A stretch of 64,000 nt of DNA from Sphaerochaetaceae bacterium (GCA_024405015.1 JAKSPE010000005.1:36149-100148); one strand, 5' to 3'; numbered from the stretch's first letter, positions 46,599 through 60,899 are shown. The notes: generated from the letters alone by a model not told the origin. A program made the numbers and translations.

Positions 46599-49550
46599 AT
46601 GAAGAAATTCATCGTTTTCGCTCTTGTCCTCGCTCTCGCAATGACATCCGTTTTCGCAATGGGTCTTGCTGAAGATATGAAGGCACAGGAAGCTGCAGCA
46701 GCTGCTGTCGTTGAGACTCCAGTTGTTGAAACAGTTGCTCCAGTTGTTGCTGGTCCTGCAACTTACACATTCGGAATGGGAATCACATTCGATGATGAAC
46801 AGTCCAACGACACAACAGCAGCTTACGATGCAGTTGTCGCAGCAGTCGTTCTCGACGCTGAGGGAAGAATCGTTGCAGTTCAGATCGATGACGCTCAGAA
46901 CAAGATGACAAAGGACGATGTCGACCCAGAGAAGACATTCAAGTCCAAGTATGAGCTCCAGTATGACTACAACATGGTCAAGTTCTCTGAGGCAACAAAC
47001 GAGTGGTTCGAGCAGGCAGCTGCATTCGAAGACTACTGCGCTGGCAAGACTGCTGCAGAGATTGCTGATCTCGCAACAAGAGTCAGAACAGAGGCTGAGC
47101 CACATCCAGGCTACGTCGTCACAGCTGACGAGGAGCTTTTCGCATCCTGCTCCATGTCCATCACAAGCTTCAAGGAAGCAGTCGTGAAGGCATGTGCAGA
47201 CACAAAGGCAAAGACATTCACAACAGATGCTCCATTCTGTGTCGGACTCAAGGTCAGCACAACAGCTGAGGAGTCAACAGATGAAGTCATCAAGATGTAC
47301 GCAAACTTCGGTGCAGTCGTCGTAGACGAGAACGGAGTCATCCTTGCTGCTCTCCTCGATGCAATCCAGCCACAGTTCAAGGTTGAGGATGATGCATTCA
47401 CATTCAAGGGCACAAAGAAGGAGCTCGAGTTCGGCTACAACATGGTCAAGTTCTCCGAGGCAACAAACGAGTGGTTCGAGCAGGCAGCAGCATTCGAGGA
47501 TTACTGTGCAGGTAAGACAGGTGCTGAGGTTGCAACACTCGCAACAAGAGTCAGAACAGCAGACGAGCCACATCCAGGCTACGTCGTCACAGCTGACGAG
47601 GAGCTTTTCGCTTCCTGTTCCATCCAGATTGTTGAGTTCAAGTCCGTCCTCGCACAGGCAGCCGGTGCTGAGCCAGTTGTTGAAGCAGTTGTTGAGGGAC
47701 CTGCAACATATACATTCGGAATGGGTATCACATTCAGCGATGAGCAGTCCAACGAGACAACAGCAGCATACGACGCAGTCACAGCAGCAGTCGTCCTCGA
47801 CGCTGAGGGAAGAATCGTTGCAGTTCAGATCGATGACGCTCAGAACAAGATGACAAAGGACGATGTCGACCCAGAGAAGACATTCAAGTCCAAGTATGAG
47901 CTCCAGTATGACTACAACATGGTCAAGTTCTCTGAGGCAACAAACGAGTGGTTCGAGCAGGCAGCTGCATTCGAAGACTACTGCGCTGGCAAGACTGCTG
48001 CAGAGATTGCTGATCTCGCAACAAGAGTCAGAACAGAGGCTGAGCCACATCCAGGCTACGTCGTCACAGCTGACGAGGAGCTTTTCGCATCCTGCTCCAT
48101 GTCCATCACAAGCTTCAAGGAAGCAGTCGTCAAGGCTTGCAACGATACAAAGGCAAAGACATTCACAACAGATGCACCATTCACAGTCGGACTCAAGATC
48201 AGCACAACAGCTGAGGAGTCAACAGACGAGGTCATCAAGATGTACGCCAACTTCGGTGCAGTCGTTGTAGACGAGAACGGCGTCATCCTTGCAGCACTTC
48301 TTGATGCCATCCAGCCACAGTACAAGGTCGAGGAAGAGGCATTCACATTCAAGGGAACAAAGAAGGAACTTGAGTTCGGTTACAACATGGTCAAGTTCTC
48401 CGAGGCTACAAACGAGTGGTTCGAGCAGGCAGCAGCATTCGAGGATTACTGTGTAGGTAAGACAGGTGCTGAGGTTGCAACACTCGCAACAAGAGTCAGA
48501 ACAGCTGACGAGCCACATCCAGGCTACGTCGTCACAGCTGATGAGGAGCTTTTCGCTTCCTGTTCCATCCAGATCGTTGAGTTCAAGTCTGTTCTCGCAC
48601 AGGCTGCTGGCGCTGAGGCTGTTGCTCCAGCTACATACACTCTCGGTATGGGAATCACATTCGATGATGAGCAGTCCAACGAGACAACAGCTGCTTACGA
48701 TGCAGTTGTCGCAACAGTCGTCCTCGATGCTGAGGGCAAGATCGTTGCAGTCCAGATCGATGACGCTCAGAACAAGATGACAAAGGACGATGTCGACCCA
48801 GAGAAGACATTCAAGTCCAAGTATGAGCTCCAGTATGACTACAACATGGTCAAGTTCTCTGAGGCAACAAACGAGTGGTTCGAGCAGGCAGCTGCATTCG
48901 AAGACTACTGCGCTGGCAAGACTGCTGCAGAGATTGCTGATCTCGCAACAAGAGTCAGAACAGAGGCTGAGCCACATCCAGGCTACGTCGTCACAGCTGA
49001 CGAGGAGCTTTTCGCATCCTGCTCCATGTCCATCACAAGCTTCAAGGAAGCAGTCGTCAAGGCTTGCAACGATACAAAGGCAAAGACATTCACAACAGAT
49101 GCTCCATTCTGCCTCGGTGTTGCAGTCAATACAAAGGCTGACGAGTCTACAGATGAAGTCATCAAGATGTATGCTGAGTTCGGTGCTGCAGTTGTTTCCG
49201 CTGATGGAACAGTTCTCGCTTGTCTGACAGATGCTATCCAGCCACAGTTCAAGGTTGAAGATGATGCATTCACATTCAAGGGCACAAAGAAGGAACTCGA
49301 GTTTGACTACAACATGGTCAAGTTCTCTGAGGCAACAAACGAGTGGTTCGAGCAGGCAGCTGCATTCGAAGACTACTGCGCTGGCAAGACTGCTGCAGAG
49401 ATTGCTGATCTCGCAACAAGAGTCAGAACAGAGGCTGAGCCACATCCAGGCTACGTCGTCACAGCTGATGAGGAGCTTTTCGCTTCATGCTCCATGCAGA
49501 TCACAGGCATGAAGGCTGTCATCTCCAAGGCTGCTAACAACGCCAACTAA
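46599..49550 (+). CDS. secreted six-module repeat protein (FMN_bind-like modules with A-S-C-S in place of S-G-A-T)
   Basis: GGGAG SD. Sec signal peptide (…MTSVFA/MG) with no lipobox. Six modules of 152-159 aa make up the rest of the protein. The gene ends 8 nt before apbE. Confidence 0.85.
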   Translation: MKKFIVFALVLALAMTSVFAMGLAEDMKAQEAAAAAVVETPVVETVAPVVAGPATYTFGMGITFDDEQSNDTTAAYDAVVAAVVLDAEGRIVAVQIDDAQNKMTKDDVDPEKTFKSKYELQYDYNMVKFSEATNEWFEQAAAFEDYCAGKTAAEIADLATRVRTEAEPHPGYVVTADEELFASCSMSITSFKEAVVKACADTKAKTFTTDAPFCVGLKVSTTAEESTDEVIKMYANFGAVVVDENGVILAALLDAIQPQFKVEDDAFTFKGTKKELEFGYNMVKFSEATNEWFEQAAAFEDYCAGKTGAEVATLATRVRTADEPHPGYVVTADEELFASCSIQIVEFKSVLAQAAGAEPVVEAVVEGPATYTFGMGITFSDEQSNETTAAYDAVTAAVVLDAEGRIVAVQIDDAQNKMTKDDVDPEKTFKSKYELQYDYNMVKFSEATNEWFEQAAAFEDYCAGKTAAEIADLATRVRTEAEPHPGYVVTADEELFASCSMSITSFKEAVVKACNDTKAKTFTTDAPFTVGLKISTTAEESTDEVIKMYANFGAVVVDENGVILAALLDAIQPQYKVEEEAFTFKGTKKELEFGYNMVKFSEATNEWFEQAAAFEDYCVGKTGAEVATLATRVRTADEPHPGYVVTADEELFASCSIQIVEFKSVLAQAAGAEAVAPATYTLGMGITFDDEQSNETTAAYDAVVATVVLDAEGKIVAVQIDDAQNKMTKDDVDPEKTFKSKYELQYDYNMVKFSEATNEWFEQAAAFEDYCAGKTAAEIADLATRVRTEAEPHPGYVVTADEELFASCSMSITSFKEAVVKACNDTKAKTFTTDAPFCLGVAVNTKADESTDEVIKMYAEFGAAVVSADGTVLACLTDAIQPQFKVEDDAFTFKGTKKELEFDYNMVKFSEATNEWFEQAAAFEDYCAGKTAAEIADLATRVRTEAEPHPGYVVTADEELFASCSMQITGMKAVISKAANNAN
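46752..49547 (+). repeat. in-frame tandem repeat: three super-units of about 930-945 bp, each with an A and a B half (6 modules)
   Basis: Module boundaries are A1 46752-47219, B1 47220-47696, A2 47697-48164, B2 48165-48623, A3 48624-49091 and B3 49092-49547. Blocks of more than 250 nt (for example from 46918, 47863 and 48790) are essentially identical at the nucleotide level. Confidence 0.9.
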
Positions 49551-49558
49551 TTGATGAT

Positions 49559-50746
49559 ATGCAAAGAAAGACAATAGTGTCGGGCATCGCCATTGTGGTG
49601 ATGCTCGGCATCCTTTCTATTACAGGTTGCACAAAGGCTGCCTCTGAAAAACCTTCAGAGGCAGTTTCTGCGTCTAAAGAACAGATTGTCGTGGCCGTTT
49701 CCGAGCCTGTGACATCTGCGGAAAAGACACAGCCTGTTGTGGAGAAGGAACCTGAAAAGCCTGTAAAGGAGACTGCCCCAGTGCAGAACCCAAAGGGCCG
49801 AGGTAAGGTCTATTACAATCTCTTTGATACTGTTTCCTATGTCTACAGCTATGCCGGAGACAGCGACGACAGATTCCTCGGAATCTGCGACCAGGTCTAC
49901 GACATTCTGAACGACTATCACATGATGTTTGACATCTACTATGAGTATTCTGGCGTCAACAATCTCAAAACCATCAACCTCAACGCTGGTGGAGAACCGA
50001 TTGCTGTGGACGCAAGGCTCATAAAGTTCCTTCAGTATGCAAAGGAACTTTATGAACTGACAGGCGGCGAGATGGACGTCATGATGGGTTCTGTTCTCTC
50101 TATCTGGCACGAGGCTCGAAACGCATCTGTCCCATATGTACCTTCCACGGAGAAACTGGAAGAGGCAAACAGATTCGTTGGATTCGACTACCTCGAGATA
50201 GATGAAGAGAATGGAACTGTAAGAATTACAGATTCCAGAGCATCACTTGATGTTGGTGCACTCGGAAAGGGCTATGCGACGGAGATGGCTGCAAGGTACC
50301 TTGAGAAAATCGGTGCTGAGCACTATGTCCTGAACATAGGAGGCAACATCCGCATCGTCGGCACAAAGGTCGATGGAAGTGGATGGGTGACAGGAATCCG
50401 AAATCCGAAGGACCCTGATAACTCATTCTCACTGAAGGTCAATATCAGTGATTGTGCATGTGTCACAAGTGGTAGCTATGAGCGATATTTCACCGTCAAT
50501 GGCGTGAAGTACCCTCATATTATCGATAAGGATACCCTGCAGCCTGCCCGTTATTATGAATCACTGACCGTCATCACAAAGGACAGCGGTCTTGCGGATG
50601 CCTTGTCTACCGCACTGTACTGCATGCCTTATGAGGATGGCCTGAAGCTTGTGGAAAGTCTGAAAGACGTGGGGTGCGTCTGGATCTTCTCAAACGGAAG
50701 TATCCGATATACTCCAAATCTGAAAGACGTCGTCATTAATGTCTGA
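49559..50746 (+). CDS. apbE: FAD:protein FMN transferase (ApbE/Ftp) lipoprotein
   Basis: Lipobox LSITGC, a long Pro/Glu/Lys linker, then the ApbE motifs DVGALGKGYA, TSGSYERYF, HIIDK.T and ADALSTAL. Confidence 0.9.
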   Translation: MQRKTIVSGIAIVVMLGILSITGCTKAASEKPSEAVSASKEQIVVAVSEPVTSAEKTQPVVEKEPEKPVKETAPVQNPKGRGKVYYNLFDTVSYVYSYAGDSDDRFLGICDQVYDILNDYHMMFDIYYEYSGVNNLKTINLNAGGEPIAVDARLIKFLQYAKELYELTGGEMDVMMGSVLSIWHEARNASVPYVPSTEKLEEANRFVGFDYLEIDEENGTVRITDSRASLDVGALGKGYATEMAARYLEKIGAEHYVLNIGGNIRIVGTKVDGSGWVTGIRNPKDPDNSFSLKVNISDCACVTSGSYERYFTVNGVKYPHIIDKDTLQPARYYESLTVITKDSGLADALSTALYCMPYEDGLKLVESLKDVGCVWIFSNGSIRYTPNLKDVVINV

Positions 50747-50783: not shown

Positions 50784-52076
50784 GTGCTTTTCAGTAAGAA
50801 GATTTCAGCAGTACATGTACCGCATTGCAAGTCCACACAGGACAAGCATTCCGTACGCATTGCACCACCTGAGTCTGTAACAATTCCTATGTCAATGCAC
50901 TCTGGTGCACCAGCAGTTCCAGTTGTAGCTGTCGGTGACCACGTTTACATTGGCCAGCTGATCGCAAAAGAGGGAGAGGGCAGAGTCTCTTCTCCAATCC
51001 ATGCATCAATCTCCGGAACTGTTTCAGCTGTTGGTGAGAAGTCCATCTCCATCAAGTCTGATGGAAAGATGGAGATCGATCCTCAGATGAAGGCTCCAAA
51101 GCTCGAGACTTTGGATGACTTCCTGGATGGTTGCCGCAAGAGCGGTATCGTCGGTCTCGGTGGAGCAGCATATCCTCTTCACGGTAAGTGGGAAGCTGTC
51201 AGAAAGAACAAGATTGAGACTGTTCTCATCAACGGTGCTGAGTGTGAGCCATATTGTACAGCTGACAACAGAACCATGGTTGAGGACTATGATCATATCA
51301 AGCAGGGTATCGAGATTCTCAAGAGATTCGTAGGTGCAAAGGAGTATGTCATCGGTATCGAGGCAAACAAGCCAGAAGCCATCAAGCTCCTTACAGACCT
51401 CTTCAAGGATGACAGCTCTGTCATCGTCAAGTCCCTTGAGTCCGTCTACCCACAGGGTGCAAAGCAGGTTCTTCTTTGGAACGCAACCGGAAAGGTTGTC
51501 GCTGCTGGTCAGAGACTTGCATCCCTCGGTGTCATCATCACAAACGTCACAACACTCGCAAAGATGGCTCTCTACTTCGAAACCGGTATGCCACTTGTTG
51601 ACAAGTGTGTTTCTGTTGACGGTTCTGCCATCAAGGAGCCAAAGAACATCATCGCTCCAATCGGAACCAGCTACGGTTACTGCATTGAGCAGTGTGGTGG
51701 TTTCAGCTGTGAGCCTGGTCGTGTCATTGAGGGTGGTCCTATGATGGGTCGCACAATCGCATCTCTCGATGAGCCTGTCATCAAGGCTACCAACGGTCTT
51801 GTTGCCATGAGTCAGGCCGATTCCGTCATCCTTGAGCCAACTGCATGTCTGCATTGCGGAAAGTGCGTTGAGGCATGTCCACTGGATCTCAACCCAGTTG
51901 CATACTCCGATGCTCTTGATATCGATGATGAGGACAAGAGAGAGCTGATTCTCAAGAAGGAAGATGTCCCACAGTGCATGGAGTGCGGATGCTGCGCATA
52001 CGTATGTCCAGCTCACAGACCTCTCGTCGCAAACAACAGGGCTGCTAAGAAGTTCCTGAGAGGAAGGAGAAAGTAA
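50784..52076 (+). CDS. rnfC: Rnf complex subunit C
   Basis: AAGGAGG lies 8 nt upstream of GTG 50784. GLGGA..P, NGAECEPY and two 4Fe-4S motifs (CLHCGKCVEACP, CMECGCCAYVCP). Confidence 0.9.
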   Translation: MLFSKKISAVHVPHCKSTQDKHSVRIAPPESVTIPMSMHSGAPAVPVVAVGDHVYIGQLIAKEGEGRVSSPIHASISGTVSAVGEKSISIKSDGKMEIDPQMKAPKLETLDDFLDGCRKSGIVGLGGAAYPLHGKWEAVRKNKIETVLINGAECEPYCTADNRTMVEDYDHIKQGIEILKRFVGAKEYVIGIEANKPEAIKLLTDLFKDDSSVIVKSLESVYPQGAKQVLLWNATGKVVAAGQRLASLGVIITNVTTLAKMALYFETGMPLVDKCVSVDGSAIKEPKNIIAPIGTSYGYCIEQCGGFSCEPGRVIEGGPMMGRTIASLDEPVIKATNGLVAMSQADSVILEPTACLHCGKCVEACPLDLNPVAYSDALDIDDEDKRELILKKEDVPQCMECGCCAYVCPAHRPLVANNRAAKKFLRGRRK

Positions 52077-53017
52077 TGGCAAACAACTATAATCTCATTA
52101 CAGTATCATCACCTCATTTCCACAACGGTTCATCCGGAAGAAGAATCATGCTCGATGTCATCATCGCTCTGATTCCTGCTGCAATCGCTGCTGTGGTGAT
52201 CTTTGGTATGAAGTCCCTTGCTCTGATGGCAACCTGTATCATTGCTGCAATCGCCGCAGAGTCCCTGTTTGACGTCATCGTCAAGAAAAAGAATACCGTT
52301 GGTGACCTTTCAGCTATCGTTACAGGTCTTCTTCTTGCACTGAACCTCGGTACAGAAGTCGCCCTCTGGGAAGCTGCAGTCGGTAGCGTATTCGCAATCG
52401 TATTCGTCAAGTGCATCTTCGGTGGCCTTGGAAAGAACTTCGCAAACCCAGCAATCACAGGTCGTGTCTTCATGATCATCGCCTTCGGTTCCGTCACATC
52501 ATTCGTCAATCCGAAGTGTGTAGAGCTCGTCTCATCTGCTACACCTCTTGCAAACCTTGCACAGGGTGCAATGGATCAGCTCCCAACTGTTGGACAGATG
52601 CTTCTGGGTCTCCATGGTGGTACAATCGGTGAGACATGTATCATCGCTCTTGTCCTCGGATGGGTCTATCTCTCAGTCAGAAAGGTCATCAAGTGGTACG
52701 TCCCAGCTGCATTCATCGCAACAGTCTTTGTTCTGTTCCTGGTCTTCACTGGATCTCCAGTGGTCGCATTCTATGAGATTCTCTCCGGTGGTCTTTTCCT
52801 CGGTGCAATCTTCATGGCAACCGACTACGTCTCAACTCCTATCACAGTCAAGGGTAAGGTCGTCTTCTGCATCTGCTGTGGTATCATCACATTCATCATT
52901 CGTAAGTTCTGTGCTCTTCCAGAAGGTGTCTCATTTTCCATCCTGATCATGAACATCCTCACTCCATGGGTAGAGAAGCTTACTCACAATGTTCCACTTG
53001 ACAGGAGGGGAAAGTAA
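52076..53017 (+). CDS. rnfD: Rnf complex subunit D
   Basis: Polytopic NqrB/RnfD family protein. The SSATPL segment corresponds to the known (S/G)GAT flavinylation site. Confidence 0.9.
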   Translation: MANNYNLITVSSPHFHNGSSGRRIMLDVIIALIPAAIAAVVIFGMKSLALMATCIIAAIAAESLFDVIVKKKNTVGDLSAIVTGLLLALNLGTEVALWEAAVGSVFAIVFVKCIFGGLGKNFANPAITGRVFMIIAFGSVTSFVNPKCVELVSSATPLANLAQGAMDQLPTVGQMLLGLHGGTIGETCIIALVLGWVYLSVRKVIKWYVPAAFIATVFVLFLVFTGSPVVAFYEILSGGLFLGAIFMATDYVSTPITVKGKVVFCICCGIITFIIRKFCALPEGVSFSILIMNILTPWVEKLTHNVPLDRRGK

Positions 53018-54966
53018 TGGCAACCAAGAAAGCTACACAGTTAATTCTCCTCATTGCAACAGTCATCGTCTTCGCAGGCATCCTTGTTGCACTGAACACA
53101 GTAACCGGCCCAAAGATCCTCGCAAACCAGAACAGTGCCGTATTCGAGCCACTGTTCGCGGTCATGCCTGAGGCAAAGGGATTCACAGCTCTTGATCTTG
53201 CTGCAGCTGATACAGTCAAGGCTGCATGGAAGGAGACAAGCGGCAAGGGTTACGTCATCCAGCTCGCTACCAACAAGGGTTACACACACGAGGATATCGA
53301 TATCACAGTTGCTATCGCAGCTGACGGAAAGATCTCTGCTGTAAACCTTGAGTCCTATCCAGAGACAAAGGACTTCGGTAAGGAAACCTACCCAGCAACC
53401 TACATCGGACAGGATTCCACTCTTGCAAATGTCCAGCTCGTAGCTGGTGTCACATTCTCCTCCAAGGCATTCAAGGGTGCCATCGAGGATGCATTTGCAC
53501 TTCTCATTGACAACGGCCTTATCGGTGCTGGTGTCAAGGAGGCAAGCCAGGTCATTACAGAGATGATTCCAGTCGTGAACGCAGACATGTGTTCCGAGAC
53601 AGGCATGCTCCAGGCTAAGGAAGTTGAGGTCAAGGGTGCCAAGAAGGCTTGGGCTTCCGACAGCGGAAAGTCTGTTGCATTCTGGCTCGAGAACGGTGGT
53701 GACTTCCTTGCAATCGTTGACAACACTGGAAAGGTCACAGCATATGACCTCGATGGTAATGACGTCACATTCGCAAAGAACCCAGTCGTCACACTTGCTG
53801 AAGCAGCTTATGACGAGTACCAGAGCGTCCTCAATGCCAAGGATATTGAAGAGATCATGTCTCTCATCCCTGGTGCTGTCGGATTCAGAAAGCTCGCCGT
53901 TGAGGCTCCAGACACCGTCAAGAGCGTTTGGGCAGAGACAAGCGGTCTCGGTTATGTCGTCAGAAGCGCAACAAACAAGGGCTTCACACACGAGTACATC
54001 AACCTCTCTGTTGCATTCACAGCAGATGGTAAGATCTCCAACGTCGTTCTCGAGTCCTACCCAGAGACAAGAGACTTCGGTGCTGATTATCCAGCAACTT
54101 ACATCGGTCAGGATTCCACACTCTCTGGTGTCCAGATCATCGCTGGTGTCACATACTCATCCACAGCATTCAAGGGTGCAGTCAATGATGCATTCACAGT
54201 TCTCACCTCAAACGGTCTCGTTGTTGAGGCAGTCAAGGAGCCAAGCCAGGTCATCGATGAGATGATTCCAGAGAAGGCTACTGCACTGATCAACCCACAG
54301 GGCATCTTCCAGGGTGAAGAGATTGAGGTTAAGGCTGACGGCGTCGTCAAGGCTTGGAGAAACCCAGCCAAGAGCGTTGCCGCTTACTGGATGAACAATG
54401 CTGACGGTGACTTCCTTGTTCTTGCAAACGCATATGGCTGTGCAACCGTCTATGACCTTAAGGGTAACGATGTCACAGGCTCTCAGAAGGCTCTTTCTGA
54501 TGCAGCTCTTGCTAACAGCACATCTGTTCTTGCCAAGGCAACATCCAAGGAGATTGCAAAGGTCACAAAGCTTCTCCCAGCAGGTTCTACTGCTGTTGAG
54601 GTCGCTTGCGACATCTACACATCTGTTGCTGACATCGTCAAGGCCGAGACAGCGGACGGCGTCTACTATGGTTTCCTCTGCCACACTTATGGCTTCGGTA
54701 ACCACGAGATGACCTACTACGTTGCAATCGATCCAAACGGAAAGATCTCTGGTCTTAACACAAGTACACTCATCATCGAAGCTGAGTATTACCCACAGGC
54801 ATCCGTCAAGAAGGCTGACTATGTCGCAGCCCTTACAGGTGTCACAGCAGACTGGACAGGAGAGGAGGCACTGATTGCCAATGCAACTCTCACAACACAG
54901 TCCACACAGACTGCTCTCAACGAGGCATTCGCAGCCTTCGAGCTTCTCACAGGAGGTGCAAACTAA
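53017..54966 (+). CDS. rnfG: Rnf complex subunit G, expanded (649 aa, three FMN_bind-like domains)
   Basis: N-terminal TM helix and the usual position between rnfD and rnfE. The FMN_bind-like C-terminal segments are VAGVTFSSKAFKGAIEDAF (Thr146), IAGVTYSSTAFKGAVNDAF (Thr379) and IANATLTTQSTQTALNEAF (Thr624). Confidence 0.8.
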   Translation: MATKKATQLILLIATVIVFAGILVALNTVTGPKILANQNSAVFEPLFAVMPEAKGFTALDLAAADTVKAAWKETSGKGYVIQLATNKGYTHEDIDITVAIAADGKISAVNLESYPETKDFGKETYPATYIGQDSTLANVQLVAGVTFSSKAFKGAIEDAFALLIDNGLIGAGVKEASQVITEMIPVVNADMCSETGMLQAKEVEVKGAKKAWASDSGKSVAFWLENGGDFLAIVDNTGKVTAYDLDGNDVTFAKNPVVTLAEAAYDEYQSVLNAKDIEEIMSLIPGAVGFRKLAVEAPDTVKSVWAETSGLGYVVRSATNKGFTHEYINLSVAFTADGKISNVVLESYPETRDFGADYPATYIGQDSTLSGVQIIAGVTYSSTAFKGAVNDAFTVLTSNGLVVEAVKEPSQVIDEMIPEKATALINPQGIFQGEEIEVKADGVVKAWRNPAKSVAAYWMNNADGDFLVLANAYGCATVYDLKGNDVTGSQKALSDAALANSTSVLAKATSKEIAKVTKLLPAGSTAVEVACDIYTSVADIVKAETADGVYYGFLCHTYGFGNHEMTYYVAIDPNGKISGLNTSTLIIEAEYYPQASVKKADYVAALTGVTADWTGEEALIANATLTTQSTQTALNEAFAAFELLTGGAN

Positions 54967-55544
54967 TGATGGAAAAGGATATTATCAGCAAGAATCCTGT
55001 AATGGTTCTTTTTCTTGGAGCCTGTCCTGCTCTGGCTGCAACAACCACAGCAACAGCTTCCGTTGGAATGGCAGTTTCCGTTTGTCTGATTCTGGTTCTC
55101 TCATCAGTTCTCATGTCCCTCATGAGAAAGGGTGTTGGTGATGCCATCAGACTTCCTCTTGCAATCGTCATCAGCGCAGGATTTGCTTCCATCGCACAGA
55201 TGGTCATGGCAGCTTACCTTCCTAAGGTCTATGCAATGCTTGGTGTTTATCTTGCAATCGTTGCAGTTAACGCAATGGTCGTGACACACCAGCAGAACAC
55301 AGCTTCCCAGGAAGGCTTCGGAGCTTCTCTGAAGCAGGCTGTCATCACAGGAATCGAGTTCTGCGCTCTCGTGATTGTCATGGGAATCGTCAGAGAGATT
55401 CTCGGCAACGGAACATGTTTCGGTGCAAAGGTCCCATTCTTCGCAAACCACACAATCGCAGTTTTCGGTAAGGCAGGCGGTGCATTCATCGTATTCGCAA
55501 TTCTCCTTGCAGTTGCCGGATGCTTCAGAAAGGAGGCAAAGTGA
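54966..55544 (+). CDS. rnfE: Rnf complex subunit E
   Basis: NPV.V..LG.CPALA.TT is the RnfE/NqrD signature. 192 aa. Confidence 0.9.
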   Translation: MMEKDIISKNPVMVLFLGACPALAATTTATASVGMAVSVCLILVLSSVLMSLMRKGVGDAIRLPLAIVISAGFASIAQMVMAAYLPKVYAMLGVYLAIVAVNAMVVTHQQNTASQEGFGASLKQAVITGIEFCALVIVMGIVREILGNGTCFGAKVPFFANHTIAVFGKAGGAFIVFAILLAVAGCFRKEAK

Positions 55545-56095
55545 TGTCAGCTAAGGAAGTTATCGCAATCATGTTTGCCTGCATTCTCGCAAACAACTAC
55601 GTATTCCAGAATTTCTTCGGTGTTGAGGCTGTCGCTCTCGATTCTGAGAAGGGTATCAAGTGCATGCTCTTCAACGGACTCACAGTCACAGCAGTCCTCA
55701 TCGTCTCCACACTCATCACATGGCCAATCAACGCCATGCTCGCCAGTGCAAGCTACCTTCAGACACTTGTCTTCGCAATCGTCACAACAGCTGTTGTCTA
55801 CGTTGCAGACTTCGTCGCCAAGAAGGTTTGCAAAGAGAACAAGTGTTCTGTCCTTTCCATCGCCATCAACAGCGTCGTCATGGGTGCATGCCTTGTAAAC
55901 GCTGCTAACGGTTACGGATTTGGAACTTCTGTTCTTGCATCTGTCGGTGTCGGACTCGGATACCTTCTGGCAACATTCGTTGTCGCTGGTGTCAGAGAAA
56001 GAGTCAATGAGAAGTTCATTCCAAAGGCATGGAGAGGCGCTCCAATCCTTGCTGCTGAGATGGCTATCATCGCTCTTACACTGTTCGCTCTCTGA
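55544..56095 (+). CDS. rnfA: Rnf complex subunit A
   Basis: ILANNYVFQNFFG... is an RnfA/NqrE-like six-TM protein. Its start overlaps the rnfE stop (ATGA). Confidence 0.85.
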   Translation: MSAKEVIAIMFACILANNYVFQNFFGVEAVALDSEKGIKCMLFNGLTVTAVLIVSTLITWPINAMLASASYLQTLVFAIVTTAVVYVADFVAKKVCKENKCSVLSIAINSVVMGACLVNAANGYGFGTSVLASVGVGLGYLLATFVVAGVRERVNEKFIPKAWRGAPILAAEMAIIALTLFAL

Positions 56096-56469
56096 TGAAG
56101 AGTACTAGCAAAAAGGCACGGATCCTGAGGGATCTGTGCCTGATTTTTGCATTGGTCATCCTTGGTTTGGCTTCTCTTGTGATCATGCGAAGCCGAGGAA
56201 CCGAGGGTGCCTATGCGATTGTGCAGGTCAATGGCATTGAGATTTCACGCCATTCCTTGCATATGGAAGGAACAATTCCAGTAAACGGTGGTACCAATCT
56301 CCTGGAGATCAAGGGAAACCGTGCAAGACTTGTTGATGCAGATTGTCCGGACAAGCTCTGTGTGAGACAGGGTTGGATCCAGTACACCGGACAGTGCATC
56401 ACCTGCCTCCCGAACAAACTTACTGTTACGATTTCGGGTGGCGACGATTCAGTTGAACTGATTCTGTAG
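56095..56469 (+). CDS. NusG domain II-containing protein (DUF1312)
   Basis: N-terminal TM helix, then ...VDADCPDKLCVRQGWI...CITCLPNKL, typical of DUF1312/NusG_II. Confidence 0.8.
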   Translation: MKSTSKKARILRDLCLIFALVILGLASLVIMRSRGTEGAYAIVQVNGIEISRHSLHMEGTIPVNGGTNLLEIKGNRARLVDADCPDKLCVRQGWIQYTGQCITCLPNKLTVTISGGDDSVELIL

Positions 56470-56477
56470 AGGAATAG

Positions 56478-57008
56478 ATGGAAACGAGAAAGATCGCACA
56501 GATGGGACTTCTGATTGCCCTGGCAATGATCCTGTCCTATGTGGAAAGCAGAATACCAGCCTTTGTGGCCATACCTGGAATCAAGATGGGTCTGGCAAAC
56601 ATTGTCGTGGTTTTCGCTTTGTACCGACTGGGGTTCAAAGAGGCTCTTGTCATCACAGCGCTTCGAGTCGTTTTGGCATCTCTGCTTTTCGGATCGGTTC
56701 TTTCCATGGCCTATTCGGCCTCTGGAGCACTGCTTTCACTTGTCGGAATGACACTTCTGAAGAAAAGCAGACTTTTCGGTACGGTTGCGGTCAGCGTAAC
56801 AGGTGGAGTGCTTCATAATCTTGGACAGATTGCCACAGCTTGTCTCATCCTTGAGACCAATGCAATTGCATATTACATACCGTTTCTCATCATCAGCGGT
56901 GTTGTCACAGGAATTGTAATCGGCTTGGCTGCAGCTATAGTGATCAACAGACTCGATCCTGACAGAAAGGTCAAGGACGACGAGGAAGATGATGAAGAAG
57001 GAGTATGA
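56478..57008 (+). CDS. Gx transporter family protein (Hpre_diP_synt_I; ECF S-component-like clan)
   Basis: RKIAQMGLLIALAMILSYVE...IPG.K.GLANIV.......G is typical of PF07456. It has an acidic C-terminal tail. Confidence 0.8.
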   Translation: METRKIAQMGLLIALAMILSYVESRIPAFVAIPGIKMGLANIVVVFALYRLGFKEALVITALRVVLASLLFGSVLSMAYSASGALLSLVGMTLLKKSRLFGTVAVSVTGGVLHNLGQIATACLILETNAIAYYIPFLIISGVVTGIVIGLAAAIVINRLDPDRKVKDDEEDDEEGV

Positions 57009-57460
57009 AAATGGCTGAAGATAAGTTTTCACCAACCGGAATGAACGGAAAAGACAAGAACTTCTCACCAAAGTTCTTTGAGACAGAAGGCAAGATGGGT
57101 GCTTTCCAGAAGGGAATGCACTGGGTAACCTCTGTTCTTGAGACAATCCTTGCAATTGTGCTTGTTCTTGGTATTCTGTTCTCATTCGTACAGATGCCTG
57201 AAAAGCTTCTGGACATCATCAGCGGTGGTTCCAGCACATTGCTTGAGCTTGTCGAGTACATTGCTCTCATCATCATCGCCATCGAGCTCATCCATGTGAT
57301 CATGGTGCAGAACCTCGATTCCGTCATTGAGATTCTCATGATGGCATTTACTCGAGAACTTGTCATCAAGGAGTGGGCTATGTGGGAGCTTCTGCTTGGT
57401 GTTCTCGTCATTGCCGGACTTTTCGCCATCAAGAAATATCTGCTCAGCAAGGAAGATTGA
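57005..57460 (+). CDS. PsiE-like (phosphate-starvation-inducible E family) membrane protein
   Basis: Four-helix membrane protein. LLELVEYIALIIIAIELIHVI resembles the PsiE family. It overlaps the upstream stop (ATGA). Confidence 0.6.
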   Translation: MKMAEDKFSPTGMNGKDKNFSPKFFETEGKMGAFQKGMHWVTSVLETILAIVLVLGILFSFVQMPEKLLDIISGGSSTLLELVEYIALIIIAIELIHVIMVQNLDSVIEILMMAFTRELVIKEWAMWELLLGVLVIAGLFAIKKYLLSKED

Positions 57461-57468
57461 CATCTGCA

Positions 57469-58326
57469 ATGCCACTGATTGAAGTCGACAATGTAACATT
57501 CTCATACCCTGCCAAAGATGGTGGGGTCAATGCACTGACCGGTCTGAACCTGAAGGTTGAGGCCGGTTCGTTTGTTACTGTCCTCGGCTCAAACGGAAGC
57601 GGAAAGTCCACGTTGGGAAAGCTTCTGAATGCTCTTCTTGTCCCACAGAGCGGACGCGTGGTTGTCGATGGTCTTTGCTCTTCTGACAAGGCCAATGTAT
57701 ATGAGATCCGAAAAAGGGTGGGAATCGTATTCCAGAATCCGGACAACCAGATTGTCGCAGATACAGTGGAAGACGACGTTGCTTTCGGGCCTGAGAACAT
57801 TGGTCTTGCACTTGATCAGATGAAGGTTCGCATCGCTGACAGCCTTGCATCTACTGGCATCTCTGACCTTGCTTTGACTAAGCCGGAAAAGCTTTCCGGA
57901 GGCCAGAAACAGCGAGTTGCCATCGCAGGTGTCATGGCGCTGGAGCCGAAGTGCATCGTTTTGGATGAGTCCACATCCATGCTCGATCCAAAGGGTAGGA
58001 CAGAGGTCCTAGGTGCCATCCAGAAACTTCGAATGGAGAAGGGTATCGCTGTGATTCTCATTACCCATTACATGGAGGAGGCCGTGGATGCCGACTATGT
58101 CTATGTTCTGGATAAGGGAAGTGTGGCGTTGGAAGGAACGCCTTCTGAGGTGTTTTCCGATGCAGATACTCTGGAAGCCCTTGGCCTTGAACTTCCTCCT
58201 GCTGTTAAAGTATGGCAGATGCTTCGTGCAAAAGGGGTTGTCGTTTCCGTCCCTGTTCTGACCGAAGAGGACCTGGTCTCTGCGCTTTCCAAGCTGATGC
58301 GTCAGAAAGGGGGTGCCTCATGCTGA
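57469..58326 (+). CDS. ecfA1: ECF transporter ATPase component
   Basis: GSNGSGKSTL, LSGGQKQRVAIAG and LDESTSMLD motifs. The N-terminus (LIEVDNVTFSY) is EcfA1-like. Confidence 0.85.
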   Translation: MPLIEVDNVTFSYPAKDGGVNALTGLNLKVEAGSFVTVLGSNGSGKSTLGKLLNALLVPQSGRVVVDGLCSSDKANVYEIRKRVGIVFQNPDNQIVADTVEDDVAFGPENIGLALDQMKVRIADSLASTGISDLALTKPEKLSGGQKQRVAIAGVMALEPKCIVLDESTSMLDPKGRTEVLGAIQKLRMEKGIAVILITHYMEEAVDADYVYVLDKGSVALEGTPSEVFSDADTLEALGLELPPAVKVWQMLRAKGVVVSVPVLTEEDLVSALSKLMRQKGGASC

Positions 58327-59078
58327 AGGATGTGACCCTCGGACGCTACTATCCAATCGAATCTCCACTTCATGAGCTGGATCCTAGAACCAAGATGGTT
58401 GCGATTCTCATTTACATTGTGACCACCTTTCTTGCCTCTACACCAATTACCTGTGCACTGACATTTCTTGTTCTTTGTCTTCTGATCCACCTTTCCAAAG
58501 TGCCGGTACGATACATGGTCAAAGGTCTCCGGGCGGTAGTCATCATTGTTGTGATTACTGATCTGATCAACATTTTCTTTGTGGAGAATGGCCTTTGGAA
58601 GGCTTTCATTGTGACGCTTCGAATGATTGAGATTGTCCTTGGTTCGAACATCCTTTCCCTTACCACTAAGCCTAAAACCATGGCAGCCGGAATCGAGAAA
58701 GGCTTGGGCTGGATGAAGAGACTCCATGTTCCAGTGCACGATTTTGCCACAATGATCTCCATTGCCTTCCGTTTCCTTCCGATTCTGACGCAGGAAGCCG
58801 ACAAGGTCATGGAAGCCCAGAAGGCACGTGGTGCTGATTTTGAAAGCGGAAATCTGCTGCGTCGAGCAAAGGCTCTGATGCCGATCCTGATTCCTCTGTT
58901 TGTGTCCGCATTCCGAAGAGCAGATGAACTTGCGCTTGCTATGGATAGCCGTCTCTATGGTTCTGGAGAGCCTACCAGTTTGCACCCTCTGAAGTACAAC
59001 ACCTCCGATGGCGTTTCCTATCTTCTTGCTTTTGCCTACCTGGCACTGGTGATTGTTCTCAAGGTGGTGCATGTATGA
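58320..59078 (+). CDS. ecfT: ECF transporter transmembrane (T) component
   Basis: LGRYYP..SPLH.LDPR.K and A...ARG are EcfT/CbiQ motifs. It overlaps both flanking ATPase genes. Confidence 0.85.
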   Translation: MLKDVTLGRYYPIESPLHELDPRTKMVAILIYIVTTFLASTPITCALTFLVLCLLIHLSKVPVRYMVKGLRAVVIIVVITDLINIFFVENGLWKAFIVTLRMIEIVLGSNILSLTTKPKTMAAGIEKGLGWMKRLHVPVHDFATMISIAFRFLPILTQEADKVMEAQKARGADFESGNLLRRAKALMPILIPLFVSAFRRADELALAMDSRLYGSGEPTSLHPLKYNTSDGVSYLLAFAYLALVIVLKVVHV

Positions 59079-59890
59079 TTGAAATCAGAGATCTTTGCTA
59101 CCGTTACGATGTAGGTACCCCTTTTGAGAAGGTCGCTGTGCAGAATGTGTCATTCACCATTGAGGATGGAGCATTTCTTGGTATCGCTGGAAGCACAGGA
59201 AGCGGAAAGTCCACACTCATCAAACATCTGAATGGTCTACTTAGGCCGACATCCGGTACGGTTCTGCTCAATGGAGAGGATATCTTCGCATCGACCTATG
59301 ATCGAATCGCCCTTCGTGGAAAAGTGGGTCTTGTGTTTCAGTATCCGGAGTACCAGCTCTTTGAGGAGACTGTCCTTCGCGATGTGATGTTTGGTCCTAA
59401 GAACATGGGACTTTCCGACAAGGATGCAAAGCAGAGAGCAAAGGATGCCCTTTCGCTTGTCGGTCTTGGCAAAGAGTATTACAAAAGATCTCCATTTGCC
59501 CTCTCTGGAGGTGAAAAGCGCAGAGTCGCAATTGCTGGAATGCTTGCCATGCAGCCGCAGGTTCTGGTTCTTGATGAACCTGCAGCTGGTCTTGATCCGA
59601 GAATGCACAACGAAATCTTCAGCCTTCTGAAGCGTCTGAACGAAGAGGGTACCACCATCGTTGTCGTGTCTCACAGCATGGAAGACATTGCCCAGTATTG
59701 CACCACAATGGCTCTTATGGACAACGGAAGGCTTGTGGACTTTGGAAAACCTGCAGAGGTGTTCGCCAAAGACCATGTGTCCAAGCCTTTTGCTGCAAGA
59801 GTTGCCCAGATGCTTGGTGACTTCGGTTGTGATCTTTCCGGCGTCTGCACCATTGAGGATCTTGTGGAGCGAATCTGCAAAGAGATGTGA
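59075..59890 (+). CDS. ecfA2: ECF transporter ATPase component
   Basis: Y..GTPFEK.A...VSF.IE.G.F.GI.G.TGSGKSTLI.HLNGLL.PTSG is EcfA2-like, with LSGGEKRRVAIAG. Confidence 0.85.
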   Translation: MIEIRDLCYRYDVGTPFEKVAVQNVSFTIEDGAFLGIAGSTGSGKSTLIKHLNGLLRPTSGTVLLNGEDIFASTYDRIALRGKVGLVFQYPEYQLFEETVLRDVMFGPKNMGLSDKDAKQRAKDALSLVGLGKEYYKRSPFALSGGEKRRVAIAGMLAMQPQVLVLDEPAAGLDPRMHNEIFSLLKRLNEEGTTIVVVSHSMEDIAQYCTTMALMDNGRLVDFGKPAEVFAKDHVSKPFAARVAQMLGDFGCDLSGVCTIEDLVERICKEM

Positions 59891-59903: not shown

Positions 59904-60698
59904 TCAAAGGAAATGCTCTTTGATGAACTGCATCAGGTATTCTTCGTTCAACGGATGTTTTCGTGATTCAAAGGTCATTACCAGGTTTTTTCCGGAAATA
60001 ATTCCCTTTTTTGCGTAGAGCTCAATTTTCCTAAGAAAACTTTTGTCGACGTAATCTTCGTCATCCAACCTTCCAAAGTGCTCATAGACGTATTCCTTTC
60101 CTGTTCGAACATTCAAAACAAGGAAATCTGGATACAATCGTTCGTCTTCAACAGTGATTGGGTATTCAAATATGTATGGGATTCTGAGATCCTCGAATAT
60201 GTTGACAATGATTTCTTCTGTCTTTGATCTTACTCTAAGTCCGTTTCTTGCAACTATGACTCTTTCGTCAAAGGCGAAACCAAGCTTTCTGTAAGGAGGC
60301 CGTGTCTTCCACTTTTCGATGTCTGTGGCGGAGATGGATGTCTTCGTCACATATTCTCTGCGAATAGCAGATAAGTTGTCATAGATATCTTCAGGATCTT
60401 GGCAACGGCTCAATAGCTTAATGCACTTTTGAAGTTCAATGACAGTCTTCTTTGAACAATTGATGACAGAATCATCGTAATCCTGTTGAGCAAGAGCTTT
60501 GATGGTGTTGATTTTAGATTTGGGGAGGTATGTGCCATTTGTTTTGGCAGGATCATTTTTCCAATAGAATCTTACAATTCCTTTTTCGTTTCTGACACTC
60601 AAAGACCCTGGAATTCGACTTGTCTGCTTCTTGTTGATGAATTCAGACAGCTTCTCACAATACTTTTCGATTATTTCAACAATGTATGATGTTCTCAT
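59904..60698 (-). CDS. PD-(D/E)xK superfamily nuclease-like protein (TnsA-N/Vsr-like core), orphan
   Basis: RSKTEEII....L.IPY..EYP......LYPDFLVLN....KEYVYEHFG has an E...PD...E.. arrangement like TnsA_N or DUF559-type endonucleases. The start is set at MRTSY (60696-60698). Confidence 0.55.
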   Translation of the reverse strand: MRTSYIVEIIEKYCEKLSEFINKKQTSRIPGSLSVRNEKGIVRFYWKNDPAKTNGTYLPKSKINTIKALAQQDYDDSVINCSKKTVIELQKCIKLLSRCQDPEDIYDNLSAIRREYVTKTSISATDIEKWKTRPPYRKLGFAFDERVIVARNGLRVRSKTEEIIVNIFEDLRIPYIFEYPITVEDERLYPDFLVLNVRTGKEYVYEHFGRLDDEDYVDKSFLRKIELYAKKGIISGKNLVMTFESRKHPLNEEYLMQFIKEHFL

Positions 60699-60713
60699 GC
60701 CAACTATATACCA
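60696..60713 (-). promoter_or_regulatory. extended -10 promoter abutting the start codon (candidate leaderless mRNA)
   Basis: The minus strand reads TGgTATATA, then 6 nt (GTTGGC), then ATG. No SD is present. Confidence 0.4.
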
Positions 60714-60899
60714 GCAAACTGTCAATAATATTTTTTGTGACAGAACTTCGTGTTCTATAGATTTTCAAAAAATAAAAGAAAGCATAGTGAATGTACTATG
60801 ATTATGAAAAAAACTGGTTGAAACATGGAACAAATGAATCTGGTATCGATGAAAGTTCTATGCATTTTGGAAGAAATTGGATTTCAATAGTGAAAACAC

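Follow-up and report, generated by a model that had tools for sequence, protein, structure and literature searches.

Before the work on EetB in Listeria, it was not clear by which route flavin adenine dinucleotide (FAD) arrives at the outer side of the membrane, where ApbE uses it. EetB, a PF07456 protein, has been described there as the FAD-binding S subunit of a transporter of the energy-coupling factor (ECF) type that exports FAD and supplies the ApbE-type enzyme FmnB (Rivera-Lugo et al. 2023, mBio 14:e03085-22, PMC9973259). This exporter is composed of EetB (S subunit), FmnA (T subunit) and the ATPases EcfA/A', RibU being the S component of an importer. EetB is required for FAD export and for the flavinylation of PplA, its structural model is ECF-S-like, the S subunit strictly sets the direction of transport and import is not supported by EetB. 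In the same study eetB was found colocalised with eetA in 3,328 genomes, with apbE in 2,169, with ECF-A/A' in 796, with ECF-T in 291 and with Rnf in 572 Clostridia, and gene fusions of EetB with ECF-A or ECF-T were reported. The core idea that PF07456 proteins are S subunits of ECF flavin exporters is already published. In this work we examined a 64,000-nucleotide (nt) stretch of DNA from a Sphaerochaetaceae bacterium, hereafter called the window, in which an eetB gene is followed, between positions 56478 and 59890, by the gene of a small PsiE-like membrane protein, here named X, and by a complete ECF module. The evidence supports the view that the known EetAB/ECF FAD exporter is represented at this locus by a spirochaete variant, distinguished by a full A-T-A' set within the operon and by the conserved PsiE-like gene.

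The window resembles the Listeria system in that a PF07456 S subunit gene lies near a PF07009 gene and apbE, together with an ECF T subunit and two ATPases, and by analogy its presumed role would be the supply of FAD for extracytoplasmic flavinylation. It differs in that T and both A genes belong to the operon itself, in the order A-T-A', whereas in Listeria the T subunit is a second paralogue, FmnA, and the shared ATPases have their genes elsewhere. The organism of the window is a diderm spirochaete, X is inserted between S and A, and the clients would be an Rnf complex lacking RnfB and a multi-domain secreted protein, instead of the Listeria combination of Ndh2, PplA and demethylmenaquinone (DMK). 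No Ndh2, PplA or DMK synthesis gene lies beside eetA/eetB, the search for ndh2 and dmk having been confined to that neighbourhood.

The second group of close systems comprises the group II ECF importers, in which RibU, FolT, ThiT or BioY associate with EcfA-EcfA'-EcfT (PDB 5KBW, 3P5N, 4HUQ, 4RFS). Common to these and to the window are the S fold, ATPases scoring as EcfA1/EcfA2 equivalogs above cut-off, arginine-containing coupling motifs, a single module and a BioY encoded elsewhere in the genome. The window departs from them by its S gene, which lies within the operon as in group I systems, by the gene order (A-T-A' and not A-A'-T) and by the presumed outward direction of transport.

Treponema pallidum is, like the host of the window, a spirochaete with ApbE-type flavinylation in the periplasm and with Rnf, and needs FAD in that compartment. 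A flavin-trafficking scheme for this species, comprising Ftp/ApbE (TP0796) and the importer RfuABCD, is said to have been drawn up by Deka et al. in 2015. Unlike the window, Treponema genomes carry a long form of EetB, of 365-395 aa, without linkage to any EcfT, and they have no X orthologue, their only PsiE-like protein being fused to CorC_HlyC and encoded elsewhere.

EetB and the adjacent ECF module

The eetB gene (56478..57008, + strand), the only PF07456 copy in the genome assembly to which the window belongs, encodes a protein that matches PF07456 over profile positions 1-145 of 147 with 137 bits (cut-off 30; E 6.5e-40). Its NCBIfam matches to ECF S families are weak and below threshold. 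The name 'Gx transporter family protein' is attached to close homologues, some of which carry overlapping precomputed matches to PF12822 or PF09512. An AF2 model built from 22 sequences (pLDDT 84.6, pTM 0.79) predicts a six-helix, RibU-like fold of the ECF-S type. When it was compared with the PDB using Foldseek, the top 15 matches were all ECF S components and nothing else was found at high probability; the best match was TmRibU (5KBW; TM 0.68-0.73, rmsd 3.3-4.0 Å over approximately 170 residues), followed by the RibU of S. aureus and by ThiT, FolT, PanT and BioY structures. The original prediction, which saw in this Gx protein an unconventional ECF S component next to EcfA-T-A', agrees with the modelled fold and with the assignment of EetB to PF07456 (PMC9973259). 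The protein is the orthologue of EetB itself, an ECF-S-type subunit and, by analogy with Listeria, a predicted FAD carrier for export.

Directly 5' of eetB, at a distance of 8 nt, lies a NusG_II gene (56095..56469, +; PF07009, E 8.2e-28), which had been left out of the unit originally proposed. PF07009 is labelled EetA in Data Set S1 of PMC9973259, so that this gene is eetA. The predicted product is a single-pass membrane protein, and its K/R-rich N-terminus followed by a transmembrane helix would place the NusG_II domain on the extracytoplasmic side.

The ECF module consists of ecfA1 (57469..58326, +; TIGR04520, 357 bits, cut-off 315), ecfT (58320..59078, +; PF02361, E 1e-35, 124 bits) and ecfA2, or A' (59075..59890, +; TIGR04521, 335 bits, cut-off 330). 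The true starts of ecfA1 and ecfT are internal to their longest open reading frames (ORFs); that of ecfA1 begins at 57373, and the MPLIEV start at 57469 fits the family model. The two ATPases are distinct ABC proteins, one of EcfA1 and one of EcfA2 type, whose catalytic motifs are intact: GSNGSGKS (Walker A), LSGG (signature), IVLDE (Walker B) and TH (H-loop) in EcfA1, and GSTGSGKS, LSGG, VLVLDE and SH, respectively, in EcfA2. The coupling motifs of EcfT are ARG at residues 169-171 and SRL at 210-212, the second departing from the usual x-R-G form found in group II importers. All genes named in the original prediction are present on the + strand, with the Gx gene two genes 5' of the complete module and with overlapping genes, and the uncommon order A1-T-A2 is real and kept in every related operon examined.

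The association between eetB and the module was then assessed in related genomes. An X orthologue with 48-68% identity to that of the window is carried by 38 GTDB species-representative loci, and in 38/38 of these it is followed by ecfA-ecfT-ecfA' as far as the contig extends. The eetA-eetB pair is found 5' of X wherever the contig extends, with two exceptions: the L038 contig ends within a spacer, and in L042 an unrelated 439-aa gene on the opposite strand (54-1370, -) is inserted 5' of X before the contig ends. The complete series eetA-eetB-X-ecfA-ecfT-ecfA' also follows apbE, with rnf in between or absent, in the metagenome contigs L004-L008, L024-L026, L110 and L112, and eetA and apbE accompany eetB in every related locus whose sequence extends that far upstream. 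In total, the order eetB-(X)-ecfA-T-A' was seen in more than 40 related operons. The linkage of these genes is far beyond chance and, since the flanks vary among loci, it is the block itself that has been retained.

Records bearing the block are metagenome-assembled genomes of Spirochaetales, Sphaerochaetaceae and Candidatus Ornithospirochaeta from gut and rumen. PF07456 is present in 170 of the 401 sampled genomes of the wider phylum. In none of the 29 other Spirochaetia genomes in which eetB could be located was an EcfT gene found within 50 kb (the nearest lay at 61 kb), which makes eetB and ECF in one operon a trait of the Sphaerochaetaceae-like clade within the phylum. The ECF module is thus genetically tied to eetB in this lineage.

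The genes upstream indicate what such a transporter might serve. ORF listing and profile searches delineated on the + strand of the window one tightly packed run of genes in the same direction, extending from the gene of a 983-aa secreted multi-domain protein (46599..49550; signal peptide MKKFIVFALVLALAMTSVFA) to ecfA2. This first gene ends 8 nt 5' of apbE (49559..50746, +; PF02424, E 8.5e-63), whose product is an FAD:protein FMN transferase with a lipobox (...LSITGC, residues 19-24) and belongs to the same operon. It is followed by rnfC-rnfD-(long)rnfG-rnfE-rnfA (50784..56095, +; Pfam Complex1_51K/RnfC_N, NQR2_RnfD_RnfE, FMN_bind and twice Rnf-Nqr), a cluster devoid of rnfB. The G and D subunits of Rnf require covalent FMN. 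The gene junctions between apbE and ecfA2 measure -7 to +37 nt and are for the most part overlaps of 1, 4 or 7 nt; those of the rnf genes are 1-nt overlaps, and eetB, X, ecfA1, ecfT and ecfA2 abut or overlap each other, so that the S gene shares an operon with its own A and T genes. No terminator signal above chance was detected inside the block, the promoter/terminator scan doing no better on it than on shuffled sequence, and no FMN riboswitch or other RNA element was found between 44000 and 64000 of the window. The 983-aa protein is a probable flavinylation client of ApbE, and ApbE itself would, by analogy, be the consumer of the exported FAD.

We consider it likely, by analogy with Listeria, that eetA-eetB-X-ecfA1-T-A2 encodes an ATP-driven FAD exporter serving the ApbE-dependent flavinylation of the clients encoded in the operon. 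In such an exporter EetB would bind FAD on the cytoplasmic side and dock on EcfT, and ATP hydrolysis by EcfA1/EcfA2 would move FAD across the cytoplasmic membrane to its outer face, the ECF transporter running outward. EetA, the usual extracytoplasmic partner of EetB, would assist on the outside, and the lipoprotein ApbE, using the exported FAD, would link FMN covalently to RnfG, to RnfD and to the 983-aa secreted protein. What was established here comprises the identities of the genes, the fold, the organisation of the operon, the retention of the block and the homology of X; transport direction and substrate are taken from the Listeria experiments. The flavin trafficking for ApbE/Rnf flavinylation proposed in the original prediction agrees in substance with the Listeria work; its comparison with a Listeria RibU/FmnA/EetB arrangement follows an older model, revised in PMC9973259.

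Gut and rumen spirochaetes with two membranes would accordingly share the Listeria solution in its most complete form, in which a single operon holds S, T and the two ATPases together with ApbE, Rnf and the clients. This operon is a convenient self-contained cassette for the reconstitution of ECF-mediated export. Apart from X, the finding confirms existing knowledge without extending it.

The PsiE-like protein X

X is encoded at 57011..57460 (+) and has 149 aa from this start or 151 aa from an alternative start at 57005; the former is more likely because of the Shine-Dalgarno spacing and of a recorded 149-aa form (P0001, 99% identical). It matched no Pfam family even at E<=10, and hence not PF06146 (PsiE) directly, no NCBIfam assignment was obtained, and none of its 122 close homologues has a Pfam domain. 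A profile search of 1.84 billion representatives returned about six clusters at E<=1e-30 and 748 at E<=1e-3. Among 46 distant homologues sampled, 26 matched PF06146 (best E 1e-7) and 8 carried a C-terminal CorC_HlyC domain; the profile of X aligned with the distant homologues with an hhalign probability of 99.95%, and a Treponema homologue of X matches PsiE at E 7e-4. By transitive and profile homology X is a remote member of the PsiE superfamily, and the earlier designation 'PsiE-like' holds at this level, failing only as a direct family match.

The PsiE family consists of phosphate-starvation-inducible membrane proteins. X is similar to E. coli PsiE and its relatives in size, in a four-helix membrane core and in conserved Glu and Arg residues within the helices. 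It differs from them by an invariant N-terminal motif of its own, FSPxFF(E/D), which is absent from the distant homologues, and by the location of its orthologues in an ECF exporter operon. The other invariant residues of the X alignment are the polar helix positions E94, Q102, N103, E109, T116 and R117. The AF2 model shows four helices with moderate confidence (pLDDT 70), and no PDB structure resembled it meaningfully in a fold search (best E 5). From the distribution of charges, both termini appear to be cytoplasmic. The literature searched for PsiE or EetB in spirochaetes yielded nothing relevant.

In all operons that carry it, X occupies the same slot between eetB and ecfA, in 38/38 species-representative loci and in the other contigs, with identities of 48-82%. 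It is tightly coupled in translation to its neighbours in the window. Its orthologues were found nowhere outside this operon type, except for one paralogue group beside another ABC exporter, and the invariant FSPxFF is specific to X, generic PsiE-like relatives lacking the motif. These four features stand against the strongest competing explanation, according to which X is a co-transcribed passenger that acts apart from the exporter, for example in ion or stress physiology, and has no role in flavin traffic. We give this explanation serious weight, if somewhat short of an even chance. In its favour, an equivalent operon without X exists (L111, apbE-eetA-eetB-ecfA-ecfT-ecfA'; eetB 72% and EcfT 57% identical to those of the window), in which 30 nt separate eetB from ecfA, and X could be unrelated to transport. 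Distant X homologues occur in unrelated contexts, some of them fused to CorC_HlyC, the EetB-ECF clusters of other phyla have no X, as in a Paenibacillus example, and 'PsiE' does not figure in the part of Data Set S1 of PMC9973259 that was examined.

The X-less operon implies that X is accessory and not required for the core function, and we infer that it is a clade-specific accessory or modulatory subunit of the exporter. A more precise assignment, in which X would be a hitherto unrecognised fifth subunit of the ECF-type exporter that tunes or gates the outward transport of FAD and touches, with its cytoplasmic FSPxFF motif, either EetB or the T/ATPase module, is put forward only tentatively and appears rather doubtful. 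If it were true, it would provide the first functional handle on the PsiE superfamily and would mean that ECF transporters are able to recruit lineage-specific accessory membrane subunits. X and its natural X-less relative offer a clean comparison for the role of a PsiE-like protein.

The X paralogue is located in a different cluster (L023:8001-15174, L066:6947-10609), where the genes after it encode an ArsP_2-type permease, an ABC exporter of 572 aa and a Flavodoxin_4 protein that is cytoplasmic, and where it is preceded by a 1554-aa Thr/Ser/Gly-rich lipoprotein-like protein that has no Pfam match. An FMN riboswitch (RF00050, 118 bits) lies 3' of the cluster and is followed in L023 by ribD-ribE-ribBA-ribH, the L066 contig ending within the riboswitch; these two, placed before rib operons, were the only FMN riboswitches found. 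The cluster was judged weak as independent evidence for a flavin role, the flavodoxin having no signal peptide and the riboswitch separating the cluster from the rib genes. Fusions of 218-222 aa between a PsiE-like four-helix membrane domain and a C-terminal 'transporter-associated' domain, CorC_HlyC, are encoded at L021:8365-9033 (-), in a genome of 2,843,201 bp (G284), and at L022:8098-8754 (-).

Direction of transport and sharing of the module

Several findings weigh against the reading of the locus as a dedicated FAD exporter. The exporter function rests on experiments in Listeria and not in a spirochaete. The assembly of the organism (2.03 Mb in 48 contigs) is 85% complete; it contains exactly one EcfT and, on another contig, a BioY gene (C1:149169-149645), so that the module may be shared. 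In addition, tblastn with queries from a related contig gave no match for ribE, ribBA or ribH in this incomplete assembly, and a weak deaminase match only for ribD, which makes a role in import possible.

Import would be the function of EetB-ECF if the organism were a riboflavin auxotroph lacking RibU, as it appears to be, the transporter then working inward or in both directions. Besides the absent rib matches, this is favoured by the absence of any RibU-type S component from the searches and by the nearest structural match of EetB, which is the S component of a riboflavin importer. We nevertheless hold it to be improbable, since in Listeria direction follows strictly from the S subunit and import is not supported by EetB (PMC9973259); moreover, the operon context is that of ApbE and flavinylated periplasmic clients, the 15% missing from the assembly may contain the rib genes, and two Bmp-family binding proteins are encoded which possibly belong to a flavin ABC importer like RfuABCD. 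These PF02608 proteins (C23:103174-104124 and C9:34432-35214) are candidate RfuA-like binders of flavin or nucleosides. The organism may be a flavin auxotroph.

The question of whether the module is dedicated was addressed by an inventory of S components, drawn up from searches with five Pfam families, from 23 small polytopic ORFs scanned against Pfam and from a tblastn search in which a RibU-like fragment was the query. BioY was the sole find: the Pfam family searches detected no PF12822 above cut-off and no PF07155, ThiT or QueT, no FolT- or RibU-type component was found in the assembly, and no further member of the S-component (Gx) clan was present among the 23 ORFs, which were scanned concatenated. 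BioY proteins are able to act alone. The module may additionally energise this single BioY.

In a relative (L024:13896-16450), a second ECF system lies approximately 3 kb downstream of the eetB-linked operon and comprises a 444-aa fusion of A and A', a 249-aa T subunit and an S component resembling RibU (PF07155/PF12822); ATPase pairs of a similar kind are also found downstream in L032, L033, L035 and L059. No such RibU-linked system was found by tblastn in the genome of the window. The EcfT of the window shares 50-57% identity with the EcfT proteins linked to eetB in relatives, and only 24% with the one linked to RibU in L024; by orthology the module therefore belongs with an eetB-associated lineage and not with the importer module.

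The least probable explanation, that EcfA1-T-A2 is a general group II importer module for BioY and possibly undetected S components and lies next to eetB by coincidence, with EetB having no special dependence on it, accommodates the single EcfT, the distant BioY and the scores of the ATPases as general equivalogs (TIGR04520, TIGR04521), but is very hard to reconcile with an eetB-(X)-ecfA-T-A' order kept in the related operons despite differing flanks, with the separate RibU-linked ECF of relatives, with the failure to find S components of the PF12822, PF07155, ThiT or QueT kinds and with the published EetB fusions (PMC9973259). The 'dedicated' transporter of the original prediction is partly borne out, by the orthology of the module to eetB-linked ones, and is weakened by the sole EcfT and by BioY. 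The same prediction had asked for other ecfAAT copies and a ribU gene, of which the 85%-complete assembly yielded none beyond the one EcfT, and had feared a single ECF module serving many scattered S components: the module is indeed the only one, and the many S components were not found.

Variation among related loci and neighbouring genes

Directly past the operon, a convergent gene at 59904-60725 (-) encodes a 273-aa orphan without a Pfam or NCBIfam family, in a stretch of low GC content (0.37 against approximately 0.49 around it).

The long form of EetB in Treponema-type genomes consists of an N-terminal PF07456 domain and an extension of approximately 200 aa without a Pfam match. It is encoded at L029:5961-7085 (-), on contig C1 of the 1.14-Mb single-contig genome of a member of the Treponema family (G102), and also in G284 and G085, among others. 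In G102 no NusG_II gene adjoins it, its neighbour encoding an FKBP-type protein. The possibility that the C-terminal extension is an X-like domain was rejected (hhalign probability 0.15%).

One sub-clade has a non-coding spacer of 300-700 nt between eetB and X (L025:7298-8001, L041:6282-7001, L043:586-959, L058:2036-2404, L062:6672-7001), in which no Rfam match was found.

Fourteen of the operon contigs (L038, L039, L042, L047, L048, L049, L050, L052, L053, L055, L061, L064, L065 and L068) come from the record series 'H07xxx/G02607-L1_cleanbin'. Their records are given names like Phocaeicola massiliensis, Comamonas kerstersii, Faecalibacterium, Ruminococcus and Clostridium, which look wrong, as of mislabelled bins, the X proteins being 51-63% identical to that of the window.

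In another sub-clade, which lacks rnf and has apbE directly 5' of eetA, the first ATPase has 246 aa and the second only 196-197 aa, ending soon after the H-loop without the usual C-terminal domain of ECF ATPases (L004:10951-11544, L006:10942-11532, L008:10951-11544; also L051 and L067). An ABC importer is encoded directly 5' of apbE in this sub-clade and overlaps it (L004:2850-7072, L006:2819-7079, L008:2871-7082). It comprises a binding-protein-like component of 401-422 aa with no Pfam match, a 601-aa permease with a double BPD_transp_1 domain and a MalK-like ATPase, and has homologues in the genome of the window at C45:104097-107071 and on C5.

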